From NCBI GenBank assembly GCA_963840855.1, contig CAWJBB010000027.1, positions 64,001-128,000 on the forward strand: DNA of 64,000 bases. Direction: 5' to 3'. Made by a program: the position numbers and the translations under genes. The notes under the pieces were generated by a model, which did not search any database, was not told where the DNA came from, and saw nothing but the letters and a program-made list of their open reading frames with translations. Shown piece by piece: positions 31,988 through 52,800 of this stretch. This DNA comes from an uncultured delta proteobacterium (lineage in GTDB: Bacteria > Desulfobacterota > Binatia > UBA9968). Positions within the stretch are counted from its first letter, which is position 1, and each line of letters begins with the position of its first letter.

Positions 31988-33448
31988 TTGCGTGCTCCGA
32001 CTTCGGCGCGAATCTCATCGGCGATTTCCCTAGCCATGGCGTCGATCTGCTTTTCGTCTTCACCTTCGAGCATGACCCGCGCCAGCATCTCCGTGCCGGA
32101 ATAGCGCACCAACGTGCGCCCACGCCCGTCGAGCGCCGCTTCCACGGTTTGGATCTTGTGGCTTACGCCGGGCATCGCCTCGAAATCTCTTTTCTCCCTT
32201 ATCTTGACGTTGACCAGCACCTGCGGCAAGCGCGTCATCACGCGGTTCAGTTCGCTCAGCCGCCGGCCCTTTTCGATCATCAACGCAAGCAGCTGCAAGC
32301 AGGTAATCGCGCCGTCGCCCGTGGTGTTGTGATCCAAGAACAAAATATGGCCGGATTGCTCACCGCCGAGATTGTAGCCATCCCGCAACATGCGCTCCAC
32401 AACGTAACGGTCGCCGACTTCGGTGCGCACGAGTCGAACACCCAGAGGTTTGAGCGCCAGCTCCAATCCAAGATTGCTCATCACCGTGGCGACCACGGTT
32501 TGGCCCTTCAGAGTGCCTTTCTCGCGCATATCCTTGGCGCAGATCGCGAGAATCTGATCGCCGTCCAGAATATCGCCCGTCTCGTCCACGAAAACCGCGC
32601 GGTCCGCGTCGCCGTCCAGCGATACCGCAAAGTCGGCGTGTTCATGGAGCAAAACATCCCGCGCCGATTCCGGGTAGCAGTGCGCCGCAACTACGGTTAA
32701 TATTTTCGCCGTCGGGCTGAACGCCGATGGGAATCACATTCGCGCCAAGCTCGGACAGCACCTCGGGAACCACTCGGTAAGCGGCGCCATGGCCGCAGTC
32801 CACGACAATGCGCAACCCTTCGAGGGTCAGATGGCGCGGAAAAGTATTCTTGAGAAAAACCACGTAGCGGCCCACGGAATCGGAAATCCGGAACGCCTTG
32901 CCGATTTTGGAAGCCGTCGGCCGGTTCTCCTCGGTCTCGCCGTTGAAAATCATCTCTTCCATGCGCGCCTCGACATCGTCGGGCAGCTTGAACCCGTCCC
33001 AGGAAAAAAACTTGATCCCGTTGTCCTGATAGGGATTATGTGAGGCCGAGATTACCACGCCGGCGTCGGCGCGCATGCTGCGCGTGAGAAACGCCACACC
33101 TGGCGTCGGCATTGGACCGACCAGCAAAACATCGGCGCCCCTGGAACAAATGCCCGAGGCCAGGGCGGTCTCGAGCATATAGCCGGAAACGCGGGTGTCC
33201 TTGCCGATAAGAATCTTATAGCGGTGCTCCGTATCGCCGCTGAGGATCTTCGACCAGGACGGAGGCTTGGACCGCCCCGATCCTTCCCGAGGTTGGGCCA
33301 CCGGATCATGCAGCACCAACGAGACAGCACGCCCCAATTTTAGCGCCATCTCCGAGGTCATCGGGTCCTGGTTGGCTATGCCGCGCACTCCGTCGGTGCC
33401 AAAAATATGACGTTTCGCTTTATTTGGTTTAGGCTGGCTCTGCAACAT
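31984..33448 (-). CDS. glmM: Phosphoglucosamine mutase (frameshift at ~32670-32685)
   Basis: FGTDGVRG and ISASHNP in one frame; DGDADR, GGEQSGH and RYSGTE in the other. Confidence 0.93.
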
Positions 33449-38269: not shown

Positions 38270-39691
38270 TCAGCGGTCCTGGCAATTCACTTGAACGCGC
38301 AGGACTGCCTTGGTGTCGGGACCGACTCGGCCGATCTCGCTTCTGCCATAGCCGGGAAGCCAGAGCACTTCACCGCCCATGACGAGTAGCGGCAACAGGG
38401 CGCGCGCCGGCAAAGGCGCCTTTTTTTCGATAAAGAGCTCTTTTACCTTCCTGTGGCCCGCCATGCCCAGCGGCCGGAACCGGTCGCCCCGGCGAAAATT
38501 GCGCACGACTAACGGTTCCGTCAAGGCAGTGCCGTCGAAAACCGCCTCCCAGTGATCCTTGGGCAGCTCGGCCGGTGGATTCGACAACCGCTGGCAGTCC
38601 ATCGTCATGCCCGCCTCAGGCAGCGCCAATTCTCCGTCGATTACCAAAGAGTACGCATAACAGCGCGGTTTAGATTTGCCCGCCGCTTTGGCCAGCCGCA
38701 GCGTCTCGTACTCTCGGATCACCTCCCAGCCGCCGGGAATCGACAGCCGACTTTGCGGCGGGCCATCGGCAATAAGACCGAGAAGCGCTTCAACATGATC
38801 GAAATCGAGGCTACGGAGATGGCCGCGAGCCTGCTCGATCCAGAGACGAAGCATCCGGCGCTGCATGGCTTTGGGCTGGCGCAACAACCCACCGCGGCGC
38901 AGCCCTGATTTTGTGCGCAGTTGCTCAAGCTCCTTTAGTGCCAACCCGTTTAGGAGGATTTCCTCAGCGCGCAACACCTCCGCCGTTTGAGCCAACCTGG
39001 AAGGCACGCCTACGTCGAACCGCTCCTTGAGCCGCGGCATCAATTCAAAGCGAATCCAGTTGCGCAGAAAAGCGGTATCCTCGTTACTTCGGTCGAGGCG
39101 ATACGCAAGACCGTTGCGCTTGAGAAAGTCCAAAAGCTCTTCTTTGGTGGCACCCAACAACGGGCGAATGATCGTTACGCCGTTGGACGACTCAGCGCCG
39201 GCGACATTAACGGGTTGACCCGGTGCGATCCCGCCAAGCCCCTTTCGCCCGGAGCCGCGTAAAAGCCGCATGAGCACCGTTTCCGCCTGATCGTCCTGGG
39301 TGTGCGCAGTGGCAATCTTGTTGAGGTTCCGTCGCCGCGCGACTTCGGCGAAGAAGCGCAACCGTTCGAGGCGCGCCAGCTCTTCAAGATTACCCCTGCC
39401 GGCTTGAGACCGCAGGCGCGGGACGCTCACTTCCTTGATATGAACCGGCAGATTTAGCCGTTCCGCCAACCCTCGCACAAACCGCGCATCTTCTTTCGCC
39501 TCCTCGCCGCGAAGCCCATGCTCCAGGTGCGCCACTTCAAGGTGTAGACCTAACTCGTCTTGGAGGTTGTAAAGGACATGCAGCAGCGCCACCGAATCCG
39601 GCCCCCCGGAGACGGCAACGAGCACGCGGTCGCCAAGGGAAATCAATTGCGATTTCCGAATCACTTTTTTAAATTTTTCCTGGATAGCCAT
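38270..39691 (-). CDS. tilS: tRNA(Ile)-lysidine synthase
   Basis: AVSGGPDS, AHTQDDQAET, IRPLL, RNWIR, C-terminal TilS domains. Confidence 0.94.
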   Translation of the reverse strand: MAIQEKFKKVIRKSQLISLGDRVLVAVSGGPDSVALLHVLYNLQDELGLHLEVAHLEHGLRGEEAKEDARFVRGLAERLNLPVHIKEVSVPRLRSQAGRGNLEELARLERLRFFAEVARRRNLNKIATAHTQDDQAETVLMRLLRGSGRKGLGGIAPGQPVNVAGAESSNGVTIIRPLLGATKEELLDFLKRNGLAYRLDRSNEDTAFLRNWIRFELMPRLKERFDVGVPSRLAQTAEVLRAEEILLNGLALKELEQLRTKSGLRRGGLLRQPKAMQRRMLRLWIEQARGHLRSLDFDHVEALLGLIADGPPQSRLSIPGGWEVIREYETLRLAKAAGKSKPRCYAYSLVIDGELALPEAGMTMDCQRLSNPPAELPKDHWEAVFDGTALTEPLVVRNFRRGDRFRPLGMAGHRKVKELFIEKKAPLPARALLPLLVMGGEVLWLPGYGRSEIGRVGPDTKAVLRVQVNCQDR

Positions 39692-39764
39692 TGCTGGTAA
39701 AACATCCAAGAAAAAGCTTGCTAGGTTTAGGTCGGCAAATCAAGTGGAAATGTGAGCTAGCGAT

Positions 39765-39955
39765 CTAGGGGAGTTCGCATCCACTAAGCACTACAAGATT
39801 GGCTTTGAGATCCATCCCGAAGATCTCTCTTACTTCGAGCCTGCCGTCTTCTTTGTCGCTCTTGGCGAGAAGAATTGCTGAGGCGAGTGGATCGTTTTCG
39901 CTGAGCTCCGCGTGTGTGGCAAAATGAAGAATGTCGTGCCGGCGTGATAGGCGTT
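39765..39955 (-). pseudogene. CHAT-domain fragment, copy 1
   Basis: Manual translation RHDILHFATHAELSENDPLASAILLAKSDKEDGRLEVREIFGMDLKANLVVLSGCELP*; no 5' part. Confidence 0.7.
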
Positions 39956-40719
39956 GAGCAAGAGGGCGGGGATCACTTGAGGTCGAAGGCGATTAGCTCG
40001 TAATCCGGCTCGTGTTCCGATATATACCTCGCCGCCCTCACCTCGGCAACCTTGACGATAAACTTCGCCTCCGGAGCGTACCATAAGTGGTGGACCGTCA
40101 AGGTGTCATCAAGAGTCTGGCAACTACCAACACGACACTCCACTTCATAGGAAGTCTCCTCGATCTTGAATGTGCCAAATGGACCAGCAGGCGTGTTGAT
40201 TGTTTCGGTCCCGAGGACTTTAAAGCTGAATTCCCGCGACACCGACGCCTGCTGGGTCGCCCCCGGAAGACTAAACTGTGTTCTATACCGAAATCCCCAC
40301 GTCTTGTTGGCCGCTAACGGAAACTCCATGGTCCGCCGCCTTAACAGGGACGTACGCACCTCTTTCCCATCCTCGGGAGTTACTTGCTTTATCAATACCA
40401 AGTTCTGATCATAATACCGCCAGAGGTCCAATCCCCACTCGAAAACATACTGATCCTTCTCAATGGCACGGACGATCCGGGGAGATGTTCGACCGTCAGC
40501 AAAGCGCACAGTCCACGAATCGCCAACCTTATATTTAGGCATCTCAGCAACCGTAGGAAGAACTACAGGGGGACGAGAGATAGATGCAGGCGGTTGTAGC
40601 TGGGCAATGACCTGCGCCTGAGAAGCTTTGCTAGCCTCCCCACCCTTCTCCTTTCGCTCTGCCTCAAGCCGCGCTTCCTCTGTCCGGGCCTTCTCTTTAG
40701 CAATCCGCTCCTCCGCCGC
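39772..40719. repeat. Direct repeat copy 1a (homologous to ~46560-47500)
   Basis: Near-identical sequence covering the CHAT fragment and the C-terminal domain of the caspase gene. Confidence 0.92.
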
Positions 40720-42039
40720 CTGTAGACGCGCCCGCTCCATCTCGAGATTGGCCAATTCAACCTTTGCTGCTTCCTCAACCTGGCGTTTGTGTTCGATCTC
40801 TCGTTGCGCTTGTTCTGAACGGGCCTTTTCCCTGGCGAGCCGTTCTTCCTCTTCCTTAAAACGTAGACGTTCAGCTTCAAGCTTGGCGAGTCCAGCCTTG
40901 GATTCTTCCTCGGCTCGTAGCCTGCGTTCGACAGCTTGACGGGCCTCTTCTGTGCGGGCTTTCTCCACAGCAAGTCGTTCCGCCTCCGCTTTAAGAAGCA
41001 CCCGCTCCGCCTCCAGCTTCGCTAACTCAATCCTCTGCTTCTCCTCCTGAAGCTTCCGCTGCTCCTCAAATAAGGCTCTTTCCTGTCTGAACCTCGCCAC
41101 CTCCTCCCTGAGCCTCTCCCGCTCATCTGAAACCGCTGCTACAGACGGCTGCTGCCTCCCGGGGAGCACAAACACAAACTGTCCCTCGCCATCTAAACGA
41201 CTGTATTGCGGATGCTGCCGATCCTGTGAATCCCGCACCACACGACTCTCCAGCCATGTCGCCAGCTCCTGAGCCGTAACTATCCCGTTCTGATCTGTAT
41301 CCGCCGGACCCGTTAGCCCATGAAGCATCCGCCGGGTAAACAGACCATGCCCTTCCTCCTCCGATACCTGCTCGCCTTTGCGCCCCGCTGTGATAATCTG
41401 CACCGCAGGCTCCTTGGTCACAGATTCTAAATACAGAGCGTCTACCTTGGTTGGAGAAACATCCCGGGTAATGGTAAATCCCGAATAACAGGCATCCACA
41501 GCAAAAAGAACGTGCTTGGCCGGAATCCTGCGGGCAATCTTCCTTATGTCCTCCATGGCTATCGCCGTGAGCGGCAAATCCTCGGGATCTCCATCCACGG
41601 GCAGCAGAAACCCTTCGTCTCCCCCCCGTGGAAGTGAGGACGTAAGTCCATGACCTGCAAAGAAAACCAGGACCCGATCCTCCGCAGTCGTCCTGCGTAA
41701 CGTGCCGTAGAGGAGTTGCTCTATCCTCTGCTTCGTTGCTTCCTCATCCAAAAGGAGCAGTATCTTGTCCGAAGCAAAGCCAAGTTGCTGCGCTGCGGCT
41801 ACGATGCTCTTGGCATCGTTCACTGCGTAGTTGAGTCGCGGCGCCTTGGTGTAACGATCAATCCCGATGACCACGGCCCAGGAGGCGCGATACTGTACGA
41901 TACCGGAGGCGACAATCCCTCCAACCCCTCGCTCGGCGGCTGACTGTGCAGCTTGAGCCATCCCGGAGGAAAAAAGAACAAACAAGAGCACTGAGCCAAG
42001 GATATAGAGCCAATTCCTGGTAAGAATTAAATAGCTCAT
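39973..42039 (-). CDS. Exported caspase-like (peptidase C14) protein with coiled coil and DUF3108/TapB-like C-terminal domain
   Basis: Signal peptide; AVVIGIDRY, FFAGHG, DACYSG; E/R/A-rich coiled coil; ETINTPAGPF and WYAP in the CTD. Confidence 0.85.
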   Translation of the reverse strand: MSYLILTRNWLYILGSVLLFVLFSSGMAQAAQSAAERGVGGIVASGIVQYRASWAVVIGIDRYTKAPRLNYAVNDAKSIVAAAQQLGFASDKILLLLDEEATKQRIEQLLYGTLRRTTAEDRVLVFFAGHGLTSSLPRGGDEGFLLPVDGDPEDLPLTAIAMEDIRKIARRIPAKHVLFAVDACYSGFTITRDVSPTKVDALYLESVTKEPAVQIITAGRKGEQVSEEEGHGLFTRRMLHGLTGPADTDQNGIVTAQELATWLESRVVRDSQDRQHPQYSRLDGEGQFVFVLPGRQQPSVAAVSDERERLREEVARFRQERALFEEQRKLQEEKQRIELAKLEAERVLLKAEAERLAVEKARTEEARQAVERRLRAEEESKAGLAKLEAERLRFKEEEERLAREKARSEQAQREIEHKRQVEEAAKVELANLEMERARLQAAEERIAKEKARTEEARLEAERKEKGGEASKASQAQVIAQLQPPASISRPPVVLPTVAEMPKYKVGDSWTVRFADGRTSPRIVRAIEKDQYVFEWGLDLWRYYDQNLVLIKQVTPEDGKEVRTSLLRRRTMEFPLAANKTWGFRYRTQFSLPGATQQASVSREFSFKVLGTETINTPAGPFGTFKIEETSYEVECRVGSCQTLDDTLTVHHLWYAPEAKFIVKVAEVRAARYISEHEPDYELIAFDLK

Positions 42040-42063
42040 CTTGAGTCCACTTTAAGCTTATAC
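41941..42063. repeat. Direct repeat copy 1b (homologous to 47501-47622)
   Basis: Signal-peptide coding sequence and 5' leader duplicated. Confidence 0.9.
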
Positions 42064-42126
42064 GCTGAAAACTCAATCCCTCACTGGACGCTATATCGCC
42101 TAAGCCCTGTGAATTCCAGATCCCGT

Positions 42127-44871
42127 TTATTTGTGATGAAAACTCACTGCTCTCACCACCGACCCTGTCCCTGTCACCACATCGGTCACTTTCTGAATCT
42201 TCTTCCCGTCGCTCAGCGTGTACGTCACCGCCTGCCCTTTCGTGATCCCGCCGACGCCGCGCTGCATGACGGCGATGCGTTCTTTGATCTCTCGCGACGC
42301 GCGTTTGTGGCCGGCTTCGCTGCCACCTTCCATCTGCGCCAGCAGACCGCGGATGTCGGTCATCGGCTTTTCCGAGGCGAGCACGTAGATCGTCTCTGTG
42401 CCGGTATGTTCGTCCAGCCAGAACCACAGGTCCCTTGCCGGCACCACGACCTTTCGTCCGCCGTCGACGGAGCCGGACTGATTGATTTTCGGGTCGGGAA
42501 AAATCTGGCCCGCTTTGCTCTGGCTGTCGTACAGTAGAATGTACACGTACGCGGGGCGGTTCGATTCCAGATGAACCTGGAAATTATCACCTGAGCGCAA
42601 TACGCTGCCCTCGCTGACAATGATCTCGGAATAACCGCCATCAGCCTCTTTTCTCTGGCCGATGATGTTCATGCTCAAACGCAGCGGCGCGGCGACCGCG
42701 GCGGGCGCGGGCTCCTGAACAACAGCTATTTCTGGTTTGGCTGGCGCTGTGGGTGCCGTTTCTTGGGGCTTGGCCGCTATAGGAGCGGACTCTTTACTTT
42801 TCACGGCAAGCACCGGTGTCGGCTCTTTAGGCGCCGCGTCCTTCGCCTTCGCAACCTGCGGCGCTTCCTTCACCTCCGTCGGCGCGGGCGCGCTCTTCGT
42901 TTCGGCTTGTTCCGGCAGCGCAGTTTTTGTTTCAGGCGCCGGCGCGGAGACGATTTCCTTCTGCGCTTCTTCGCTGGGAGTAAATAATTGGTAACCGAAG
43001 TATCCAAGAACGAGCAGCAACGCTACCACGGCCGGATAAACATATGGAGAACGTCTCGCCGGCGTGGGCACGGGCTTCGGCGGCTCTTCGCCGCGGATCA
43101 CCTGCGCCCACTCCACGGGCGCGGCTGCGCGCGGCGGCGGAGCGACGGAGACTTCGATCTCGGCGGAGGCGAACTCGAAAGTCGGGTCGCCGTAGAGCAT
43201 ATACGTCGCCCAGACGATGGTCTCTTCGCCGTAGGCATCGATCAGTTCCAATCGGGCGCGGCGCACCGCTTCGCCGACTTTCACGCCTTGGGCGAGGAAA
43301 CTATAGAACCGTTTGGCGAAGTAGCCGCTCGGTTCGTCGAGAATTTCCCAGAAGGTGCCGATGTAATGCTGTACGCCGGCAAGCAGATAGGCATTGGCGA
43401 GGCCAAAGATCTCCTGCTCGAAACCGTCGTGAATCTGCCACTCGCCGGTCTGGCCGGTTTGACAGGCATTGGAAAAAACCAGCGAAGGCATGGGCTGGAG
43501 CCCGCCCATGGCCGAGATCTCGCTAGCCTTGAGCCGGCCGTCTTTTAAGAGCCAGCCACTCTCGGCGGGGTTGTCCGAATGATAATCGCCATGGCCGGCG
43601 TAGTGGACCACATCGTAGTCGCGCAGATTCTTTTTGACGAAGGGAATATCGACCGGCTGACTTTTGAAGTCGACATGAAACACCTCGCGCTTATCGTCGA
43701 GAAAGTTTTTGATCTCCATGCCTTCGCGGTAAGATGCGTCCAGATCGCCGCGCGGGTCGGCGAGGATTAAGACTTTGTAGGGCGCTTTGAGTGAGCGGTT
43801 TGAGAGCGCGGTCGGCGCCTGGCGGGTGCTGACGATCCGCCCCATGGCGAAGCGGCGGCAGAAAAACTGCTGGCCGTCGAACAGCAGCTCCCAGGGGATA
43901 TGAACCAGCTTGTCGTCGACGTAGAGGATCAGTTGGCGAGCTTGGGTCGCGCCGATCTTTTCCCGCGCCTTGGGCGGGATCAGCAGGTCGAAGAGAATCT
44001 GCCCGGACTTCTTAAGGCTGTCGAGTATCTCCGGTGTAACTTTGGCGCGCCGGTTGGCCCGGTTGAGAAGGGTGATTACTTCGCGCCGGGTTGCATCGAT
44101 CTGGTCCCAAGCCACTTCGACATTTTCATAAGGACGCAGCGTTCTCTCGCCAGCGTCGCTCTTCTCGAAAACGCAAATTTTGACGCTACCGTTTTCTCGC
44201 GATGCCTCCAGGACGATCTCACCGCCTATGCCCGACTCGCGGCGCACTTTGCCGCGCACGGCTTGGCGCCGCTCTACGCCCGTCCACATCACTTGATAAA
44301 CTTTAATATCCTCTTCGATGCCTTTGACCTGAACCTTGTCGACAAATGTGCAAAGGGTGTCGCGTCCCGGCTGGAGCGTATCGTAAACCGCCTCCGAGAT
44401 AAGGATCTGTCCCGGAGCGGCCAGTGACTTAATCCTTTCAGCGGTGTTGACGACGATCCCGTATACATCGCTAACATCCACAAACCCAGGTCCAGTGTGG
44501 ATGCCAATACGAATAGGGATGTGATCCCGCTCTGGCCGCCCCTGCCTGTCACGAAAGAGCGCCTCCTGCATGCGCTCAGCGCAAGCTACCGCGGCCGGCG
44601 GGTTTTCAAATGACACCAACAAACCGTCGCCCATGGTTTTAATCAGCTTGCCTTGATGCTGAGCGACGAGCGGCAACAGGAGATCGTTGTGGCGCTGGAT
44701 CATCAACTGGCCCTCGATGTCGCCTCGCGTGGAGAAGAAAGCGGTCGAACCGACGATGTCGGTGTAAAGGATGGTCGTCGGTCGCTTGAAGCGCGTGTCG
44801 ATGATCGCGTCCAGCTCGTTTCTCTTTCTCAGGATCTCTTCGAGCTCGGTCGGTTTGTCTTTATCGCTCAC
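42127..44871 (-). CDS. Class III adenylate cyclase - CHAT protease - TM - DUF4384 fusion
   Basis: YTDIVGST, KTMGDG, DVYG..VNTAER; IPWELL, HYAGHG, FSNACQT, MLYGDP; TM; LRSGD..YVYIL..IFP..GTETIYVLAS. Confidence 0.85.
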   Translation of the reverse strand: MSDKDKPTELEEILRKRNELDAIIDTRFKRPTTILYTDIVGSTAFFSTRGDIEGQLMIQRHNDLLLPLVAQHQGKLIKTMGDGLLVSFENPPAAVACAERMQEALFRDRQGRPERDHIPIRIGIHTGPGFVDVSDVYGIVVNTAERIKSLAAPGQILISEAVYDTLQPGRDTLCTFVDKVQVKGIEEDIKVYQVMWTGVERRQAVRGKVRRESGIGGEIVLEASRENGSVKICVFEKSDAGERTLRPYENVEVAWDQIDATRREVITLLNRANRRAKVTPEILDSLKKSGQILFDLLIPPKAREKIGATQARQLILYVDDKLVHIPWELLFDGQQFFCRRFAMGRIVSTRQAPTALSNRSLKAPYKVLILADPRGDLDASYREGMEIKNFLDDKREVFHVDFKSQPVDIPFVKKNLRDYDVVHYAGHGDYHSDNPAESGWLLKDGRLKASEISAMGGLQPMPSLVFSNACQTGQTGEWQIHDGFEQEIFGLANAYLLAGVQHYIGTFWEILDEPSGYFAKRFYSFLAQGVKVGEAVRRARLELIDAYGEETIVWATYMLYGDPTFEFASAEIEVSVAPPPRAAAPVEWAQVIRGEEPPKPVPTPARRSPYVYPAVVALLLVLGYFGYQLFTPSEEAQKEIVSAPAPETKTALPEQAETKSAPAPTEVKEAPQVAKAKDAAPKEPTPVLAVKSKESAPIAAKPQETAPTAPAKPEIAVVQEPAPAAVAAPLRLSMNIIGQRKEADGGYSEIIVSEGSVLRSGDNFQVHLESNRPAYVYILLYDSQSKAGQIFPDPKINQSGSVDGGRKVVVPARDLWFWLDEHTGTETIYVLASEKPMTDIRGLLAQMEGGSEAGHKRASREIKERIAVMQRGVGGITKGQAVTYTLSDGKKIQKVTDVVTGTGSVVRAVSFHHK

Positions 44872-45620
44872 GGACTGTCCTCCTTGATCTTGAGCCTGAT
44901 CGCGCCTAAAGAGTTGCCTCCATCGAAGACCGCCAATTGATATGCGCCGGAAGCTATGCGATCAAAGACGGCCGTACCGTTCCGTGCGAGATACGAAGCC
45001 TGCTCCCGCTCGCCGGACAATAGGCTAAATCGAAGCCCGTCGGCAAACGATCCCGACTTCGGCGTTACGTTAACGGAAACCTGACACAGCTCACCCTCGG
45101 TCCGTTCGACTTCGACAGTCACCCGGAAGTTTCCCAGATCTTTTGCGACCTGGACTGAACCGCCAGCGGGCGATATTCCTTTACCCCGGATCACGCCTGG
45201 CGCGTTTGCCAATACCAATTCGCCGGAGGTCGTAACCAGTGCAAGCGAATCTTTCGCCAATCGAACAACCAGCTCAAGAAAGTCTGGTTTGGGGGAGGTT
45301 CGATGTATGAGAGCCATTGCTCTCTCCACGACCGGTCGCGGGAGGCTCTCGTTGTCACCCGTTTTCTCGGCTGTATATGCGCCTACAATCTCCTCCAAGC
45401 ACAAAGCGCAAGCCGCTAAATGGCTCTCCACCTCACGCTTCTGGCTCTCGGCAAGATTGCCGCTTAAATAAACAGCTAGGTGTTCCTCGTCAAGACATCC
45501 AATCCGGCTGGGATATTTTCGCGCGCGGGGGAATATGAGCCGCAAAATCCTGCCAATCTGGTTTTCGTCTGATTCGACCACGGAACTCTCCTTCGGCTCA
45601 GAATTTTCACTGCCGGCCAA
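44868..45620 (-). CDS. zf-HC2 anti-sigma-like protein, no TM, with C-terminal beta domain
   Basis: CLDEEHL..YLSGNL..HLAACALC; overlaps the start of the cyclase gene. Confidence 0.75.
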   Translation of the reverse strand: MAGSENSEPKESSVVESDENQIGRILRLIFPRARKYPSRIGCLDEEHLAVYLSGNLAESQKREVESHLAACALCLEEIVGAYTAEKTGDNESLPRPVVERAMALIHRTSPKPDFLELVVRLAKDSLALVTTSGELVLANAPGVIRGKGISPAGGSVQVAKDLGNFRVTVEVERTEGELCQVSVNVTPKSGSFADGLRFSLLSGEREQASYLARNGTAVFDRIASGAYQLAVFDGGNSLGAIRLKIKEDSP

Positions 45621-45644
45621 ATAGACGGGAGATCCCGTGGGTTC

Positions 45645-46227
45645 TTACACGAGCGGATTTTTTCTAAGGACTTCTCGAAGCTTATCCAAGACGCGGCTTT
45701 TCTGGGTGTAGACCGCGCCGACGGACATCTTGAGAATCGCGGCTATCTCTTCTGGTGGCAGGGCTTGGCGAAAAGAAAGCTGGATTATGAGCCGCTCACG
45801 AGGGGAAAGGGCCATCTAAGAGCTTGCGAGAAGTGATCATCTCTTCTTCCTGGTCAATCAAAGAATCGGAAGCGTCGGACTGCGTCGGACGCGAGCGCTT
45901 CGGTAACTTCAACGGTCGGCGTTGGCTGTTTCCTCAGAAAATCGATCGTCAGTCGCGACGCGACAACTCGCAGCCAACTCGCGAGGGTACAACCACCGTC
46001 GCCGCTGAAATTGACTGAGCTTTCGGCAATTATCTTTGCAGAAGCGAAATGAAAAACTCTTGGTAGAGATCATCAACGGCGTCATCGCGGGACTCGGCAT
46101 GATGCAGGGTGAGAGTTTTCCGAATCGTGTGATAGACCAAGTTAGAATACTGCCGGACAAAGGTATCCCATGCGGCCTTCTCGCCCTTAACGCAACCCGC
46201 AATAAGACTCTTTTCCTGTTCGGTCAT
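45645..46227 (-). CDS. ECF sigma factor (several frameshifts; sequencing error or pseudogene)
   Basis: AAWDTFVRQYSNLVY, DDLYQEFF, CTLASWLRVVASRLTIDFLR, EEIAAILKMSVGAVYTQKSR spread across frames. Confidence 0.75.
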
Positions 46228-46364
46228 CAACCCGGCTTCTTTGAAACCCGTCTCTCCGTCGGAGTGCGAGTATCATAATCGGTAGTATCATGACAAGGCG
46301 CACATTGACGACGGTCTAGGCTAACGACCTGCTCTTCTGCGTGTGGAGTGACCAGGCGGGAAAA

Positions 46365-46745
46365 AATGCTACCTCCGGGGGCCGCCAGGAGTGAGATTGG
46401 TCTTGGTCTTGAGATTCTTGTAAAAGCTCGCCATCAACTGCGCCGTTGACCTGTCTTCCACATTCCAAAGACTGGCGACAACCGACGGTGGGCCGGCGTA
46501 GATGAAACGCGCGAGTAAGACCGACCAGCTCGTCTCCGCTGGAAAGTTTGCCCAATCCCGTCTCGCAGGCGCTGAGCACGACGAGACTGGCTTTCAGTTC
46601 CATTCCGAAGATTTCTCTTACTTCGAGCCTGCCGTCTTCTTTTTCTCTTGGCGAGAAGAATTGCTGAGGCGAGTGGATCGTTTTCGCTGAGCTCCGCGTG
46701 TGTGGCAAAATGAAGAATGTCGTGCCGGCGTGATAGGCGTTGAGC
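46365..46745 (-). pseudogene. CHAT-domain 3' fragment, copy 2
   Basis: LHFATH, DGRLEVREIF, LVVLSACETGLG, GLTRAF, VVASLWNVED, FYKNL. Confidence 0.75.
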
Positions 46746-47622
46746 AAGAGGGCGGGGATCACTTGAGGTCGAAGGCGATTAGCTCGTAATCCGGCTCTTG
46801 TTCCGATATATAACTCCCCCTCACCCCGGCAACCTTGACGATAAACTTCGCCTCCGGAGCGTACCATAAGTGGCGGACCGTCAAGGTGTTATCAGGAGTC
46901 TGGCACGCACTACCAACGACACTGCACTTCATAGGAAGTCTCCTCGACCTTGAATGTGCCAAATGGACCTGCAGGCGTGTTGATTGTTTCGGTCCCGAGG
47001 ACTTTAAAGCTGAATTCCCGCCACTCCCCCGTCCCCGACGGGACCCCTCCAGCCCCACCCCCTAATTTATACCGAAATTTCCACGTCTTGTTGGCCGCTA
47101 GCGGAAACTCCATGGTCCGCTGCCTTAACAGGGACGTACGCACCTCTTTCCCATCCTCGGGAGTTACTTGCTTTATCAATACCAAGTTCTGATCATAATA
47201 CCGCCAGAGGTCCAATCCCCACGCGAAAACATACTGATCCTTCTCAATGGCACGGACGATCCGGCGAGATGTTTGACCGTCAGCAAAGCGCACAGTCCAC
47301 GAATCCCCAACCTTATATTTAGGCATCTCAGCAACCGTAGGAAGAACTACAGGGGGACGAGAGATAGATGCAGGCGGTTGTAGCTGGGCAATGACCGCGC
47401 CTGAGAAGCTTTGCTGCCTCCCCACCCTTCTCCTTTCGCTCGCCTCAAGCCGCGCTTCCTCTGTCCGGGCCTTCTCTTTAGCAATCCGCTCCTCCGCCGC
47501 TGACCTGCAGCTTGAGCCATCTCGGAGGAAAAAAGAACAAACAAGAGCACTGAGCCAAGGATATAGAGCCAATTCCTGGTAAGAATTAAATAGCTCACCT
47601 TGAGTCCACTTTAAGCCTATAC
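46560..47622. repeat. Direct repeat copy 2 (fusion of 1a and 1b)
   Basis: Matches 39772-40719 and 41941-42063; the intervening ~1.2 kb is absent. Confidence 0.92.
46759..47598 (-). pseudogene. Internally deleted paralog of the caspase gene: signal peptide plus variant C-terminal domain, frameshifted
   Basis: MSYLILTRNW..MAQAA joined to AAEERIAKEK...; CTD with alternative loops. Confidence 0.75.
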
Positions 47623-47687
47623 AAGGATTCCGGTCAAGACTCAGTGGCTTGTCGGGGCGCCTAGAGTTCAGACCAGACAGACACGGC

Positions 47688-47724
47688 TTGACAATGCGGT
47701 CAAAGAATCAGATAATCAGATTAT
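47688..47724 (+). promoter_or_regulatory. TA operon promoter with palindromic operator
   Basis: TTGACA-N17-GATAAT; palindrome ATAATC-A-GATTAT (47712-47724) abutting the ATG. Confidence 0.7.
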
Positions 47725-48072
47725 ATGAGGCGCGCCAAAACCAAAGCATCCAAACGACCCAAGCGCCCGGTAAAAGAAACGCGGCGCATTCATTCTACGG
47801 CGAAAGGCAGCCGTGTCATCTCGGCGACCGAAGCGGCCCGCACCTTTTCTGAGCTACTCGACCGCATTTGCTATCGCGGCGAGACCTTTGTGATCGAACG
47901 CGGCGGAGAGCCGGTATGCGAAATGTCTCATGTTAAGCCACCGCGGTTTACGGGCGCCGATTTTCTGACTTTACTGCATTCTCTGCCAAAGCCTGATCCA
48001 GGCTTTTGGGACGCGGTACATGATTCAACAAGGCAGGAGCCTTCTGTCCCAGAATCGCCGTGGGAACGCTAA
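47725..48072 (+). CDS. Phd/YefM-family antitoxin
   Basis: ISATEAARTFSELLDRI..RGETFVIERGGEPV; overlaps the toxin gene. Confidence 0.8.
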   Translation: MRRAKTKASKRPKRPVKETRRIHSTAKGSRVISATEAARTFSELLDRICYRGETFVIERGGEPVCEMSHVKPPRFTGADFLTLLHSLPKPDPGFWDAVHDSTRQEPSVPESPWER

Positions 48073-48461
48073 TCGATTCCAGCGTACTGATCGCCTGGGA
48101 ACGCGATCGATCCGAGATAGAGACCCAGCTGGGCGATTTTGCCGAAGAGGATTTCGCTATCTCGGCTATCACCGCGTCGGAATTGCTGCACGGGGTCCAT
48201 CGCGCGACGAGCCCTTCCCGGCAAAACCAGCGAGAAGCCTTTGTGGAGGGCTTATTATTGCGACTCCCGATAATCGCCTTCGATCTCATCGCCGCCCGCA
48301 TTCATGCCCGTTTGTCCGCAGAGCTTGCGCTGAAAGGAACCGCTGTGGGTCCGCACGACCTCATCATTGCAGCCACCGCTATGGCAATAGGTTACGCCGT
48401 GGCTTCACATGACGGGCGTAGTTTTCCGAAAATTCCGGGTCTGTCCTTTCGGCGCTGGTGA
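48060..48461 (+). CDS. vapC: VapC PIN-domain toxin
   Basis: LIDSSVLI, SELLHG, HDLIIAATA, SHD..SF. Confidence 0.88.
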   Translation: MGTLIDSSVLIAWERDRSEIETQLGDFAEEDFAISAITASELLHGVHRATSPSRQNQREAFVEGLLLRLPIIAFDLIAARIHARLSAELALKGTAVGPHDLIIAATAMAIGYAVASHDGRSFPKIPGLSFRRW

Positions 48462-48501: not shown

Positions 48502-49638
48502 TTACAATGTTAATTTTCCCGCATAACCCGTCATCTCGACGTAGCCTTCCCCGGCCACAGGTTTGTTCTTGAAGGTTCCTTTTACCTCCGCTGCTCCTTC
48601 CCAATACGTAACCCGTGTGCTTCGATTCGTGATCAGTTCTTGATCTTGAAACGCAGGGTTGATTGCCAATTCGATTTGCTCGGACGGAACGGCGATTTTC
48701 CACTTCATCGGATAGTTGGCGCCGCTCTTGGCGCTCTTCCAGCGCTCGAGGACTTCCACGTGGTAGTCATTGAGGTTTAGATGCCGAGTCGACCCATCGG
48801 CTCTTACCAGCGTGCCGCTTGCGTGGGCATCGATCGTGCCATCTTTGCGGCGCATAAGATAAAGCATCAATTCGGTCTGGTTATCGAGCTGGATGCTGAA
48901 CCAATCCCAGCCGACCTGTTCAGAAGTCAATTGATTGCTGCCGAACTCGTGGTCCATCCACGTCAGGCCGCGAACTTTTTCTGTTTTGCCGTTGATCGAA
49001 AGCTCGCCCTCCGCCTGCATGCGCGTCAGAGAATAGTAATAGGAGGCGCGTCCCGCTCCTTCCGCCTTTTGACTGAGACCGTTTTGGCCATGCAGCGCGG
49101 GCGGCTTGAGCGAAGTCAAGCGAAGATTCAATCTCGATTGCCGGTCACTGACCTGAATGCGGTGATTGTTTGCATCCCCCTCGACTTTCCAATCTTCGTT
49201 CCAGACATGATAGCGATCCGCCGCCGCGCCGGCCTTGTCGCCGTAGCCGCGATTGATGCGTTCGCGGAAAAGAAATTTCTTGGCGGCGATATCCGACAGG
49301 GCGAAGTGCGCCATATACAGGTCAGTGAAAATGACCGGGTGTTCCTTACGTTGCGGTTCTTGGCGGTCGCGCAGGCCGAATCGAAAAAACGTCACTTGAT
49401 AGCCGTAGCGCTTGCCGCCCGCAGTCTCCAGGTGTCCCGTGTAATACCACCACTCGGTCTTGAAGTCGGGATGCGAAAAATGATCGGCGGGAAATGATAG
49501 TTTTCGGCCCGGTAATGCGAGTTGGTAGGTAAAGCCACCCTCACCCTGCCCTCTCTCTGGCAGGGAGAGGGTTAAGATGGAGAGAAGAGCCCAAAAAAAG
49601 GTTTTTAAAAATGCTTTTGCGTTTGTATGAGATTCCAT
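48502..49638 (-). CDS. AttH-like lipocalin / carotenoid 1,2-hydratase-like exported protein
   Basis: FPADH..HP.FKTEWWY, SYYYS, WMDHEF, GWDWFS, YWEG, GYVEMTGY. Confidence 0.85.
   Translation of the reverse strand: MESHTNAKAFLKTFFWALLSILTLSLPERGQGEGGFTYQLALPGRKLSFPADHFSHPDFKTEWWYYTGHLETAGGKRYGYQVTFFRFGLRDRQEPQRKEHPVIFTDLYMAHFALSDIAAKKFLFRERINRGYGDKAGAAADRYHVWNEDWKVEGDANNHRIQVSDRQSRLNLRLTSLKPPALHGQNGLSQKAEGAGRASYYYSLTRMQAEGELSINGKTEKVRGLTWMDHEFGSNQLTSEQVGWDWFSIQLDNQTELMLYLMRRKDGTIDAHASGTLVRADGSTRHLNLNDYHVEVLERWKSAKSGANYPMKWKIAVPSEQIELAINPAFQDQELITNRSTRVTYWEGAAEVKGTFKNKPVAGEGYVEMTGYAGKLTL
49538..49572. repeat. REP-like palindrome inside the coding sequence
   Basis: CCCTCACCCTGCCCTCTCTCTG-G-CAGGGAGAGGGT. 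Confidence 0.65.
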
Positions 49639-51679: not shown

Positions 51680-52537
51680 CTAATTGGACGTAGCGACATA
51701 CATCGTGTCGTCGCGCAGAATAAATCCAGGCGGATTTCCACGTCTGGACACGACCTCGAGCCAGTCACCGTCGGAGCGCACGACGTTGATTCGGGTACCT
51801 TTGTTGACGCGAGAAATCACCCGGGAGGATTCCACCGGCTGTTCGTGCACTTCCGTCGCCCTTGTGGTCTCATAGACCCCCGGCTCCGCCGGGCGCCTCA
51901 CGGGGCGGGACGGGGCCGGCGCGCGCTCCACGGGACGCGGTTCGCTTCTTGGCTCTACCTGCGCCTGGCGCGCGCTGCGACGATCTGGCTCGCGGTTGCC
52001 ACCGCTCAATCGCTGTCCCGCCGCGGCCTGTTCTTTCCGGCTTTCCTCCAAACGGGCTTTGAGCGCCTCCGCCTCCTTAACACTTTCAGCTGCTTCCTGG
52101 CGCACTTTGGCAAGCTCGGCTTCGACGGCCTTGACATGCTCCTCTTTGATCTCCAGTTGTTTGACTTTTTCGGCCAAAAGCCGGCGCGCATCGCCGGATT
52201 CGTCTCTTCCCAGCATACCCGTACCGAGCAACGCCGCGGCGATAACGCAAAGAACGATACCGGCGATAAGCATGATTTTTGGCATAGTCGTTTTTTCCCG
52301 TCGCGACGGTTTCATCTCCCGTGGCCGTTCGTCGCGGATCAGCCACTCCGGTGACGGCGCCGTGTCCACCTCCGCTTTGCAATATGGGCAATGCGCGCTG
52401 TCCTCGGCGATGCTATTGGCGCAATGAGGACAAAGCCGGCTCGAAACCGCGCTCACTTCGTGCAACGACCGGCCATCCTTGGTGCAAAAATTGAGGTTAT
52501 CGTCGTACTGTGCTGAGCACTCAGGGCATTGTTTCAT
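51680..52537 (-). CDS. Zinc-ribbon / TM / coiled-coil / SH3b protein
   Basis: CPEC..CTKD, CPHC..CPYC, TM, coiled coil, VHEQP..SRVISRVNKG...DWLEV..GFI. Confidence 0.75.
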   Translation of the reverse strand: MKQCPECSAQYDDNLNFCTKDGRSLHEVSAVSSRLCPHCANSIAEDSAHCPYCKAEVDTAPSPEWLIRDERPREMKPSRREKTTMPKIMLIAGIVLCVIAAALLGTGMLGRDESGDARRLLAEKVKQLEIKEEHVKAVEAELAKVRQEAAESVKEAEALKARLEESRKEQAAAGQRLSGGNREPDRRSARQAQVEPRSEPRPVERAPAPSRPVRRPAEPGVYETTRATEVHEQPVESSRVISRVNKGTRINVVRSDGDWLEVVSRRGNPPGFILRDDTMYVATSN

Positions 52538-52800
52538 GGCAAACATTGTTGATCGTATGGCGCAGTCCGTCAAGGGATATGGCGCGATGATCGTTAGACG
52601 GCTCTTGCTCAATGCTGTGAACAAACGGCTCAAAAAATCTCCGATCCGAGGTCGCCGGAGCATTCCCATCCATCGAAGATCGCGAATGGGGGATCGAAAA
52701 TCGCCGACTTCTAGCGAAAAGGCGTTTTAGCCGCCTGCCAGGCCCTGTCTTGCCCGCGCTACAACCTTAGGCTATAGAACCCTGAAAGGAGTTTTCCGAC

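Follow-up and report, generated by a model that had tools for sequence, protein, structure and literature searches.

The window analysed here is a 64,000-nucleotide stretch of contig CAWJBB010000027.1 (positions 64,001 to 128,000; assembly GCA_963840855.1) from an uncultured delta proteobacterium of the Binatia. Our subject is an 8.8 kb gene island within it, bounded upstream by a CrtC-like lipocalin gene (48502-49638, minus strand) and downstream by tilS (38270-39709, minus strand). Read along the minus strand, the island comprises a gene duplicate and the remnant of a CHAT protease gene (together 47598-46369), the gene of a sigma factor of the extracytoplasmic function (ECF) type (45645-46227), a gene for a soluble anti-sigma candidate (44868-45581), a gene for a 914-residue receptor protease (42127-44871), a gene for a predicted exported C14 caspase of 688 residues (39973-42039), and a second CHAT remnant (39976-39765). 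An earlier interpretation made without database searches (the sequence-only reading) had described a co-oriented gene set next to tilS with a toxin-antitoxin (TA) module at its far end. The core genes do all lie on the minus strand, and the anti-sigma open reading frame (ORF) overlaps the receptor start by 4 bases, but the TA pair occupies the plus strand. As judged by sequence comparison, the conserved core is the ECF sigma factor, the soluble zinc anti-sigma candidate and the receptor, which joins a CHAT domain to a transmembrane (TM) segment; the receptor's cyclase domain is optional, and the caspase and TA pair are cargo. On balance, and by a modest degree, we favor the view that the cluster is a protease-gated sigma switch, in which the membrane-spanning CHAT protease would cut the soluble zinc anti-sigma factor after an invariant arginine and free the ECF sigma factor.

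Receptor protease and candidate anti-sigma factor

The receptor combines a class III cyclase domain (PF00211, residues 31-194), a CHAT domain (PF12770, 288-562), a single hydrophobic segment that starts at residue 611 and has basic residues ahead of it, a linker and a DUF4384 domain (758-836), an arrangement that the sequence-only reading had recognized correctly. That reading had also named two clan CD proteases with intact His/Cys dyads, and both are present: H427/C470 in the receptor CHAT domain, where the dyad is intact in all complete orthologues, and H130/C184 in the caspase. Because the only hydrophobic segment is preceded by basic residues, we place the CHAT domain in the cytoplasm. 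Three of its acidic positions never vary across 18/18 CHAT domains: D372, E383 and D512. Clan CD proteases that cut after arginine use acidic residues on alpha1, L4 and L5, according to the available portion of PMC4357240, and we infer that the three receptor residues are equivalents of these P1-Arg-binding positions. A full-receptor structure prediction, built on a 4-sequence alignment, reached a pLDDT of 38, too low for claims about either the S1 pocket or the tail with DUF4384. Members of the family have DUF4384 as ectodomain, whereas three distant receptors scanned have a TPR and/or CsgG-like one.

A cyclase domain is found in 11/20 receptors, a TIR domain in one (L133:4922-6892, where it replaces the cyclase at the N-terminus) and neither in eight. 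Since the cyclase is optional, cyclic AMP (cAMP) was rejected as the main output, and the cAMP arm of the sequence-only reading is reduced to an accessory. Residues D38, K78, D82, D135, N142 and R146, to which we assign presumed catalytic roles, are present, and the specificity residues differ in one relative (G028). The island does not have the composition of a Pycsar system: the PycC model matches the cyclase domain at only E 1e-4, and no cyclic nucleotide monophosphate-binding effector was recognized among the island proteins. About ten further class III cyclase domains lie elsewhere in the genome (contigs C69, C49, C70, C87 and C58), several of them clustered on C69.

The anti-sigma ORF extends from 44868 to 45620 on the minus strand; the database protein of 237 residues begins at 45581. 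It has no TM segment, and its match to zf-HC2 (E 4e-4) falls just under the Pfam cut-off. The zinc motif HxxxCxxC is nonetheless present in 125/134 homologues, and the profile matches RsiW, DdvA, RsrA and ChrR chains. Hydrophobicity reaches 1.8 or more in only 1/134 homologues, which indicates a soluble protein. The carboxypeptidase-regulatory-like model PF13620 is matched by 25/144 homologues. In the AlphaFold model (pLDDT 86.8), a helical zinc domain is followed by a beta-sandwich; Foldseek with this model returned generic Ig-like matches only, none at E 0.001 or better. From these features we predict that the protein is a candidate inhibitor of its cognate sigma factor, of the zinc-containing anti-sigma (ZAS) type.

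One residue of this protein stands out. Arg145 (codon 45188-45186, numbered from the upstream start at 45620) lies in an unstructured loop of the model and is kept in 121/121 near homologues and in 135/135 sequences drawn from 50% clusters with a mean identity of 25%; the zinc ligands are less conserved, at 0.96-0.99. (Fourteen of 148 representatives, outside 205-290 residues, were dropped from this set.) The columns that flank Arg145 are the most variable of the protein, with V, L or I preceding the arginine and G, S or N following it. The pattern is also seen without an alignment: the dipeptide RG occurs within the Arg145 linker in 77/135 sequences, compared with about 10% expected, and a hydrophobic-R-[GSA] triplet in 107/135.

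Comparable motifs are found in the receptor, whose candidate sites are Arg206 (44256), Arg593 (43095) and Arg871 (42261), the last within the sequence RGVGGI. Between the CHAT domain and the TM segment, where linker identity is 27%, 16/18 receptors carry a juxtamembrane [VILMT]R[GSA] motif (the truncated receptor of L135 was left out). In 5000 shuffles, whose figures are descriptive only, the mean was 2.4 and the maximum 9. By eye, most receptors have a similar arginine motif between cyclase and CHAT.

The core genes travel together. Among 90 family genomes, the receptor CHAT profile matches nine and the anti-sigma profile ten; all nine receptor genomes carry an adjacent anti-sigma gene, and the tenth anti-sigma contig breaks off within the receptor gene. 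A phylum sample of 401 genomes gave 18 matches, of which 14 distant near-full-length loci were fetched and four zinc-domain-only matches were not (L016 and L092 were counted once). In 11 of the 14, a CHAT gene directly follows the anti-sigma gene; one locus ends at a contig edge and two lack CHAT. In a metagenome scan, 8/68 loci match beyond the zinc motif, seven of them on short contigs. The co-occurrence expected by the sequence-only reading thus holds for anti-sigma factor and receptor, but not for the caspase, the cyclase or the TA pair, which vary. Seven distant loci (L122, L124, L125, L127, L128, L129 and L134) have a gene for a BamG/PorV-like outer-membrane barrel and one for a lipoprotein of about 690 residues right behind the receptor, which suggests a trans-envelope version. 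A different ECF and zinc anti-sigma module is followed by three large exported TPR-CHAT genes in L100:1004-17752 (G035) and by an M48-TPR protease in L101:3194-7077 (G014).

Sigma gene, predicted promoter and insertion site

The ECF sigma gene named by the sequence-only reading contains Sigma70_r2 and Sigma70_r4 in different frames, a defect that this reading had not noticed: in this assembly the gene is broken by a net +7 bases and has no open frame. It measures 583 bp, compared with 576 in two orthologues, and alignments place five to seven single-base insertions (seven against the closest orthologue tested) near 46034, 46006, 45883 and 45840-45814, with four of them inside 30 bases. The matching frames contain no nonsense codon, and all 40 mappable family-conserved residues are retained (3/43 conserved columns were unmappable, and one of the five sigma pieces was left out). 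Intact homologues of 191 residues are 84-88% identical over the first piece; homologues in general mostly have 186-191 residues. Records of an intact 191-residue sigma factor, of an anti-sigma factor and of a caspase with 99% identity all give a contig size of 7,312 bases, and from the equal size we take the contig to be the same.

Across 57 other conserved genes of the genome, we counted 2 frame changes in about 18,850 residues, one in a gene that we label glmM-like (window 32672-33430; G000:C27:96672-97430) and one in another conserved gene (G000:C74:28153-28920). The duplicate beside the sigma gene also has small indels, and the 5.6 kb of ORFs that follow, together with the promoter, are intact. 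In a search of sequencing runs, the best run shared 0.38 of words and no RNA run was among those listed; contigs of four runs belong to related strains. The frameshifts are probably read or consensus errors. Real decay of the gene is also possible, and the site decays elsewhere, with a truncated receptor in G188, a CHAT remnant retained between the flanking genes in G002 and a sigma remnant in G800.

A predicted promoter for the ECF sigma factor (45619-45649, minus strand) consists of a -35 element TGTAAG, a 16-base spacer and a -10 element CGTCTA. It lies behind the sigma gene, whose stop codon it overlaps, and faces the anti-sigma gene. Its assignment to this sigma factor is our presumption from its position and from what we take to be an ECF-like form. 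Copies of TGTAAG-N16-CGTCTA precede the anti-sigma gene and inserted cargo genes in relatives; since the motif recurs before genes inserted between sigma and anti-sigma, it is not merely the sigma stop codon. With a matrix made from 20 sites of other genomes, the window site scored 35.7 and the next best site in the 7.1 Mb genome 15.4, while shuffled genomes gave 2 matches per run at a score of 18 or more. As the sole strong match in the genome lies in its own operon, the predicted regulon is the operon itself, and a genome-wide regulon was rejected.

Where relatives lack the core, the lipocalin and tilS genes are directly adjacent (G386) or separated by about 75 bases (G003); the whole 8.8 kb therefore occupies an insertion site. 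Its plus strand holds a Phd/YefM-like antitoxin gene (47725-48072) and, identified by a domain match, a PIN/VapC-like toxin gene (48060-48461). The TA module of the sequence-only reading is real, but it is cargo: the Phd-PIN pair recurs in G800, where a protein 74% identical to the antitoxin occupies the same site, and other loci have different pairs. VapBC was accordingly rejected as a core part. Beyond the lipocalin gene, a minus-strand ORF at 51680-52669 encodes a protein that, by eye, begins with double zinc-ribbon-like CxxC motifs at its N-terminus, has a TM segment and a coiled coil, and ends in an SH3-like C-terminus.

Exported proteases, duplicates and cargo

The caspase (minus strand) has a signal-peptide-like N-terminus, and the earlier call of an exported protein is borne out as a prediction. 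The C14 domain (residues 53-281) is followed by charged helical repeats forming a stalk and by a DUF3108-like C-terminal domain, which is below the Pfam cut-off and has an Atlas score of 0.96. Within that domain, a loop at residues 581-601 (40237-40299; in the duplicate, 47020-47082) is hypervariable: among seven near-identical proteins (P0339-P0348), 11/21 of its positions have at least 3 residues, compared with 1/242 positions in the caspase domain. From the sequences, this loop resembles a binding surface that diversifies.

Just after the signal peptide, at Arg37 (41931), the caspase carries RGVGGI, the sequence that surrounds Arg871 in the receptor tail. The motif RG[VI]GG occurs 6 times in the 2.1 million ORF residues of the genome, and two of these occurrences are in the island. 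In 12 related loci (54,443 residues), 24/24 matches to a wider motif fall within island DUF4384 or CHAT proteins, in three unrelated sequence contexts: DUF4384 tails, one lipoprotein with DUF4384, and a loop at the C-terminal end of exported-type CHAT domains. Two loci fetched later show the same pattern.

The C14 caspase, which the sequence-only reading had made part of the circuit, is not core. A close orthologue was found in 1/90 family genomes, and the slot is usually held by exported TPR-CHAT proteins, matches to which occur in 6/8 other receptor genomes. The window itself retains two 3' remnants of such genes. One, at 39765-39976 (minus strand), has no start and encodes HFATH and LSGCE motifs, as compared by eye with full-length relatives; the other, at 46369-46760 (minus strand), is longer and matches PF12770 at E 2e-13. 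The latter belongs to a segment, 46369-47622, that had escaped the sequence-only reading. Here, 39775-40719 plus 41932-42063 recur as a 93-95% copy in 46563-47622, which thus holds the caspase gene minus its caspase domain, and the CHAT remnant follows. The duplicate gene (46759-47598, minus strand) joins the signal peptide to the end of the stalk and the C-terminal domain; it differs from the caspase gene in small indels and in its variable loops. Deletions like that of the duplicate are found in contigs of runs X1, X2 and X7.

Relatives carry the exported TPR-CHAT genes in tandem arrays, with remnants of the receptor 3' end between the genes (L017:10098-10241, L019:151-372, L093:12798-13082, L021:971-1495). 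This arrangement suggests that the arrays grow when CHAT ends and the conserved DUF4384 tail recombine with each other. Variable exported cargo is also inserted between sigma and anti-sigma genes (L018:8339-11100, L093:4366-7522, L094:14423-18283, L098:14839-16205, L138:8919-9560), in most cases with its own copy of the predicted promoter. It includes a DUF4384 lipoprotein that bears two RG motifs, proteins of the CsgG-SH3, M23 peptidase, HEAT-repeat and beta-helix kinds, and a stand-alone protein resembling the caspase C-terminal domain. A motif in one small cargo protein, which has no Pfam match, is presumably phospholipase A2-like.

Proposed switch and known systems

The sequences themselves show the gene order, the intact His-Cys dyads, the conservation of the motifs and a conserved promoter-like stretch ahead of the anti-sigma gene. 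From these we propose that the protease-gated switch that we favor would operate as follows. At rest, the ZAS domain of the anti-sigma factor would hold the sigma factor. An exported Arg-specific protease, the C14 caspase here and TPR-CHAT in relatives, would be switched on through its variable binding domain, would process its own RG[VI]GG site, and would then cut or engage the same motif in the DUF4384 tail of the receptor. We advance this triggering step only tentatively. The cytoplasmic CHAT domain would thereby become active and cut hydrophobic-Arg|small sites, namely R145 of the anti-sigma factor and R593 and R206 in its own linkers; the self-cuts would free CHAT and the optional cyclase from the membrane. 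That the receptor cuts the anti-sigma factor at R145 and so frees the sigma factor is, given the motif conservation and the known analogues, rather likely. The freed sigma factor would transcribe its own operon only; the resulting rise in exported proteases and surface cargo would amplify the response, and that in anti-sigma factor would damp it. The variable TPR, DUF3108-like, CsgG and M23 cargo makes a ligand on a surface or at cell contact the probable stimulus. In its fullest form, the proposal is a caspase cascade with two tiers, one on either side of the inner membrane, and thus a protease-activated receptor of bacteria: an expandable array of exported caspase-like proteases with interchangeable ligand-binding domains would act on one RG[VI]GG site in the DUF4384 ectodomain, the receptor would cut the anti-sigma factor and its own linkers, and the sigma factor would re-transcribe the array, with some members freeing a cyclase or TIR domain. 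We regard this extended version as speculative, and somewhat doubtful as a whole.

Several observations weigh against these proposals. The motifs were defined after inspection of these sequences, and related genomes are not independent; the shuffle and Poisson figures are therefore too favorable. G012, G388 and G800 lack the juxtamembrane motif. RG[VIL] is found in only 16/30 of the nearest caspase propeptides and 25/111 overall (9/120 caspases lacking the anchor were dropped). With the query used, no exported TPR-CHAT was found in receptor genomes G331 and G810, though the motif is present there, and eight genomes have an exported TPR-CHAT match but no detected receptor. Distant receptors with TPR/CsgG ectodomains have neither RG[VI]GG nor an exported protease nearby, and the outer tier is therefore not essential to the family. 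The anti-sigma gene occurs without a nearby CHAT gene in G041 (L098:12536-17779), G663 (L126) and G579:C189 (L132), the first two of which retain sigma and the promoter motif; at such loci the activating protease may lie elsewhere or be absent. Finally, it may be that this genome's sigma gene is truly dead.

The arginine motifs might alternatively serve as docking or pseudo-substrate peptides. The DUF4384 tail and the propeptide would then block the active sites of the exported proteases, ligand binding or clustering would trigger the receptor, and the anti-sigma loop would anchor on CHAT. There is precedent in the gingipain prodomain, whose arginine fills the S1 pocket as an inhibitor (PMC4357240, available portion), and in PCi, which inhibits PCaspase yet is also cut by it (bioRxiv 2023.06.23.546230, available portion). 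The lack of the outer motif in distant receptors fits this explanation too, and conservation alone does not separate binding from cutting. We nonetheless consider it unlikely: only the arginine is invariant in an otherwise free anti-sigma loop, with a hydrophobic residue before it and a small one after, much as at the PatU3 site of Anabaena, where only R117 is described as essential, and the receptor dyad is intact in every complete orthologue.

The sequence-only reading had raised a defence role. On this view, the island would act against phage or in abortive infection, and the infected cell would be halted by the caspase, by VapC and by cAMP or a different cyclic nucleotide made by the cyclase. 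The presumed catalytic residues of the cyclase, the replacement of that domain by TIR in one receptor and the crowding of TA pairs at the insertion site are in keeping with this idea, as are the defence links of DdvA-DdvS and Csx29-Csx30-sigma in the published portions available. However, the cyclase is missing from 9/20 receptors, and that of G028 differs in its specificity residues. Among the island proteins scanned, neither a nucleotide-sensing effector nor a CRISPR/CBASS gene was recognized, and PADLOC gave only generic matches to caspase, CHAT and cyclase domains. Predicted export of the caspase and the location of the TA pair on the opposite strand also speak against a defence role, which we hold to be improbable. 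Scarcely better are the prospects of an island in decay, with a sigma pseudogene, with the caspase, duplicate and TA genes as hitch-hikers at an insertion hot spot, and with no working circuit left. This would account for the frameshifts in the sigma gene and the duplicate, for the two CHAT remnants and for the decay seen at the same site in relatives. Against it stand the nature of the sigma changes (single-base insertions, up to four in 30 bases, no nonsense codon, every mappable conserved residue kept), the intact neighboring ORFs and promoter, the low background of frame changes, and the intact genes recorded on the 7,312-base contig.

CHAT domains, C14 caspases of bacteria and DUF4384 occur widely, mostly without known substrates. 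This locus offers an enzyme, candidate cut sites at the level of single residues (R145, R593, R206, R871 and R37), a sigma factor and a predicted promoter, and a whole circuit can thus be tested. If the protease-gated switch is real, heterocyst development, with its HetF-PatU3-sigmaHetZ logic, provides a single example of a more general signaling design; if the outer tier is real as well, DUF4384 serves as an ectodomain that senses proteases, and one caspase signals to another across the membrane in bacteria.

We found no description of this wiring in the open-access literature, most subscription papers being outside the search. Two ECF groups resemble the island in gene context only. ECF54 has a carboxypeptidase-regulatory-like protein at +1 and CHAT genes nearby, but is 100% actinobacterial, with subtilases and no recognized anti-sigma factor (PMC7826278, available portion); the homologues here are named Candidatus Binatia or Deltaproteobacteria, which suggests a Binatia-type bacterium of soil or sediment as host, and no subtilase was recognized in the loci scanned. 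ECF25 shares zinc and/or DUF4384 anti-sigma factors, but these are membrane proteins (PMC7826278, PMC8999054, available portions). A later group in PMC7826278 may already list the present context, as the part available for comparison covers earlier groups.

Among characterized systems, the SAVED-CHAT/PCaspase/PCc-sigma cluster of Haliangium ochraceum likewise unites CHAT, a C14 caspase and a sigma factor, with a two-protease cascade of the kind proposed here (bioRxiv 2023.06.23.546230, available portion). There, both proteases are cytoplasmic, cA3 is the trigger and CHAT activates the caspase, whereas here the two are predicted on opposite sides of the membrane with the caspase acting first; Pfam and PADLOC gave no match to a SAVED sensor, CD-NTase or Cas10 among the island proteins. 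DdvA-DdvS of Myxococcus xanthus shares a ZAS anti-sigma factor, an ECF sigma factor and a CHAT domain joined to a TM helix (PMC11506125, available portion). The CHAT domain of DdvA is periplasmic and fused to the anti-sigma factor in a single ZAS-TM-periplasmic TPR-CHAT chain, in contrast to the island, where CHAT is encoded by a separate gene and predicted cytoplasmic, and the anti-sigma factor is separate and soluble.

The sequence-only reading took its precedent from type III-E Craspase (Csx29 TPR-CHAT, Csx30 and CASP-sigma), where CHAT cuts a soluble anti-sigma factor in a linker and frees an ECF sigma factor, as predicted here; some Csx30 C-terminal domains are DUF4384 (PMC10028731, bioRxiv 2022.08.17.504292, available portions). 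The logic is shared, but in the island there is no Cas7-11 or RNA trigger, the protease is membrane-anchored, and DUF4384 sits on the outer side of the protease instead of on the substrate. Csx30 is described as cut at Met or Leu motifs, compared with the P1 arginine predicted here, and no Cas7-11, CRISPR array, csx30 or csx31 was found among the proteins between the flanking genes. The CRISPR-independent transmembrane circuit suggested by that reading, with CHAT cutting a soluble anti-sigma factor, gains support from gene co-occurrence, from the invariant candidate P1 arginine and from a closer precedent, HetF-PatU3.

In Anabaena sp. PCC 7120, HetF has a CHAT-TM-periplasmic TPR architecture and cuts PatU3 at R117|S118 (PMC9457339, available portion), and PatU3 inhibits the ECF sigma factor HetZ (PMC13342950, in the available portion of which HetF is unmentioned). 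We read the two reports as describing one circuit. HetF orthology itself is not indicated, with NF045509 scoring 20.7 bits against a cut-off of 1200 and DUF4384 in place of periplasmic TPR. The candidate inhibitor here is a ZAS zinc domain plus a beta-sandwich, and the sigma factor, judged by homologues of mostly 186-191 residues, would be a plain 191-residue ECF protein that probably lacks the HetZ insertions (HetZ exceeds 400 residues in PMC13342950, available portion). The island also differs from the HetF system in its single operon with all parts, its DUF4384 ectodomain, its optional fused cyclase or TIR domain and its exported proteases that share the ectodomain motif. In both cases, however, a CHAT domain with an intact dyad is joined through one TM segment to an extracytoplasmic domain (topology predicted here), and a soluble ECF-sigma inhibitor is encoded behind the sigma gene with an Arg-small cut site, established there and predicted here. 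By this analogy, HetF-PatU3-sigmaHetZ is the closest working counterpart of the island, which likely works alike.

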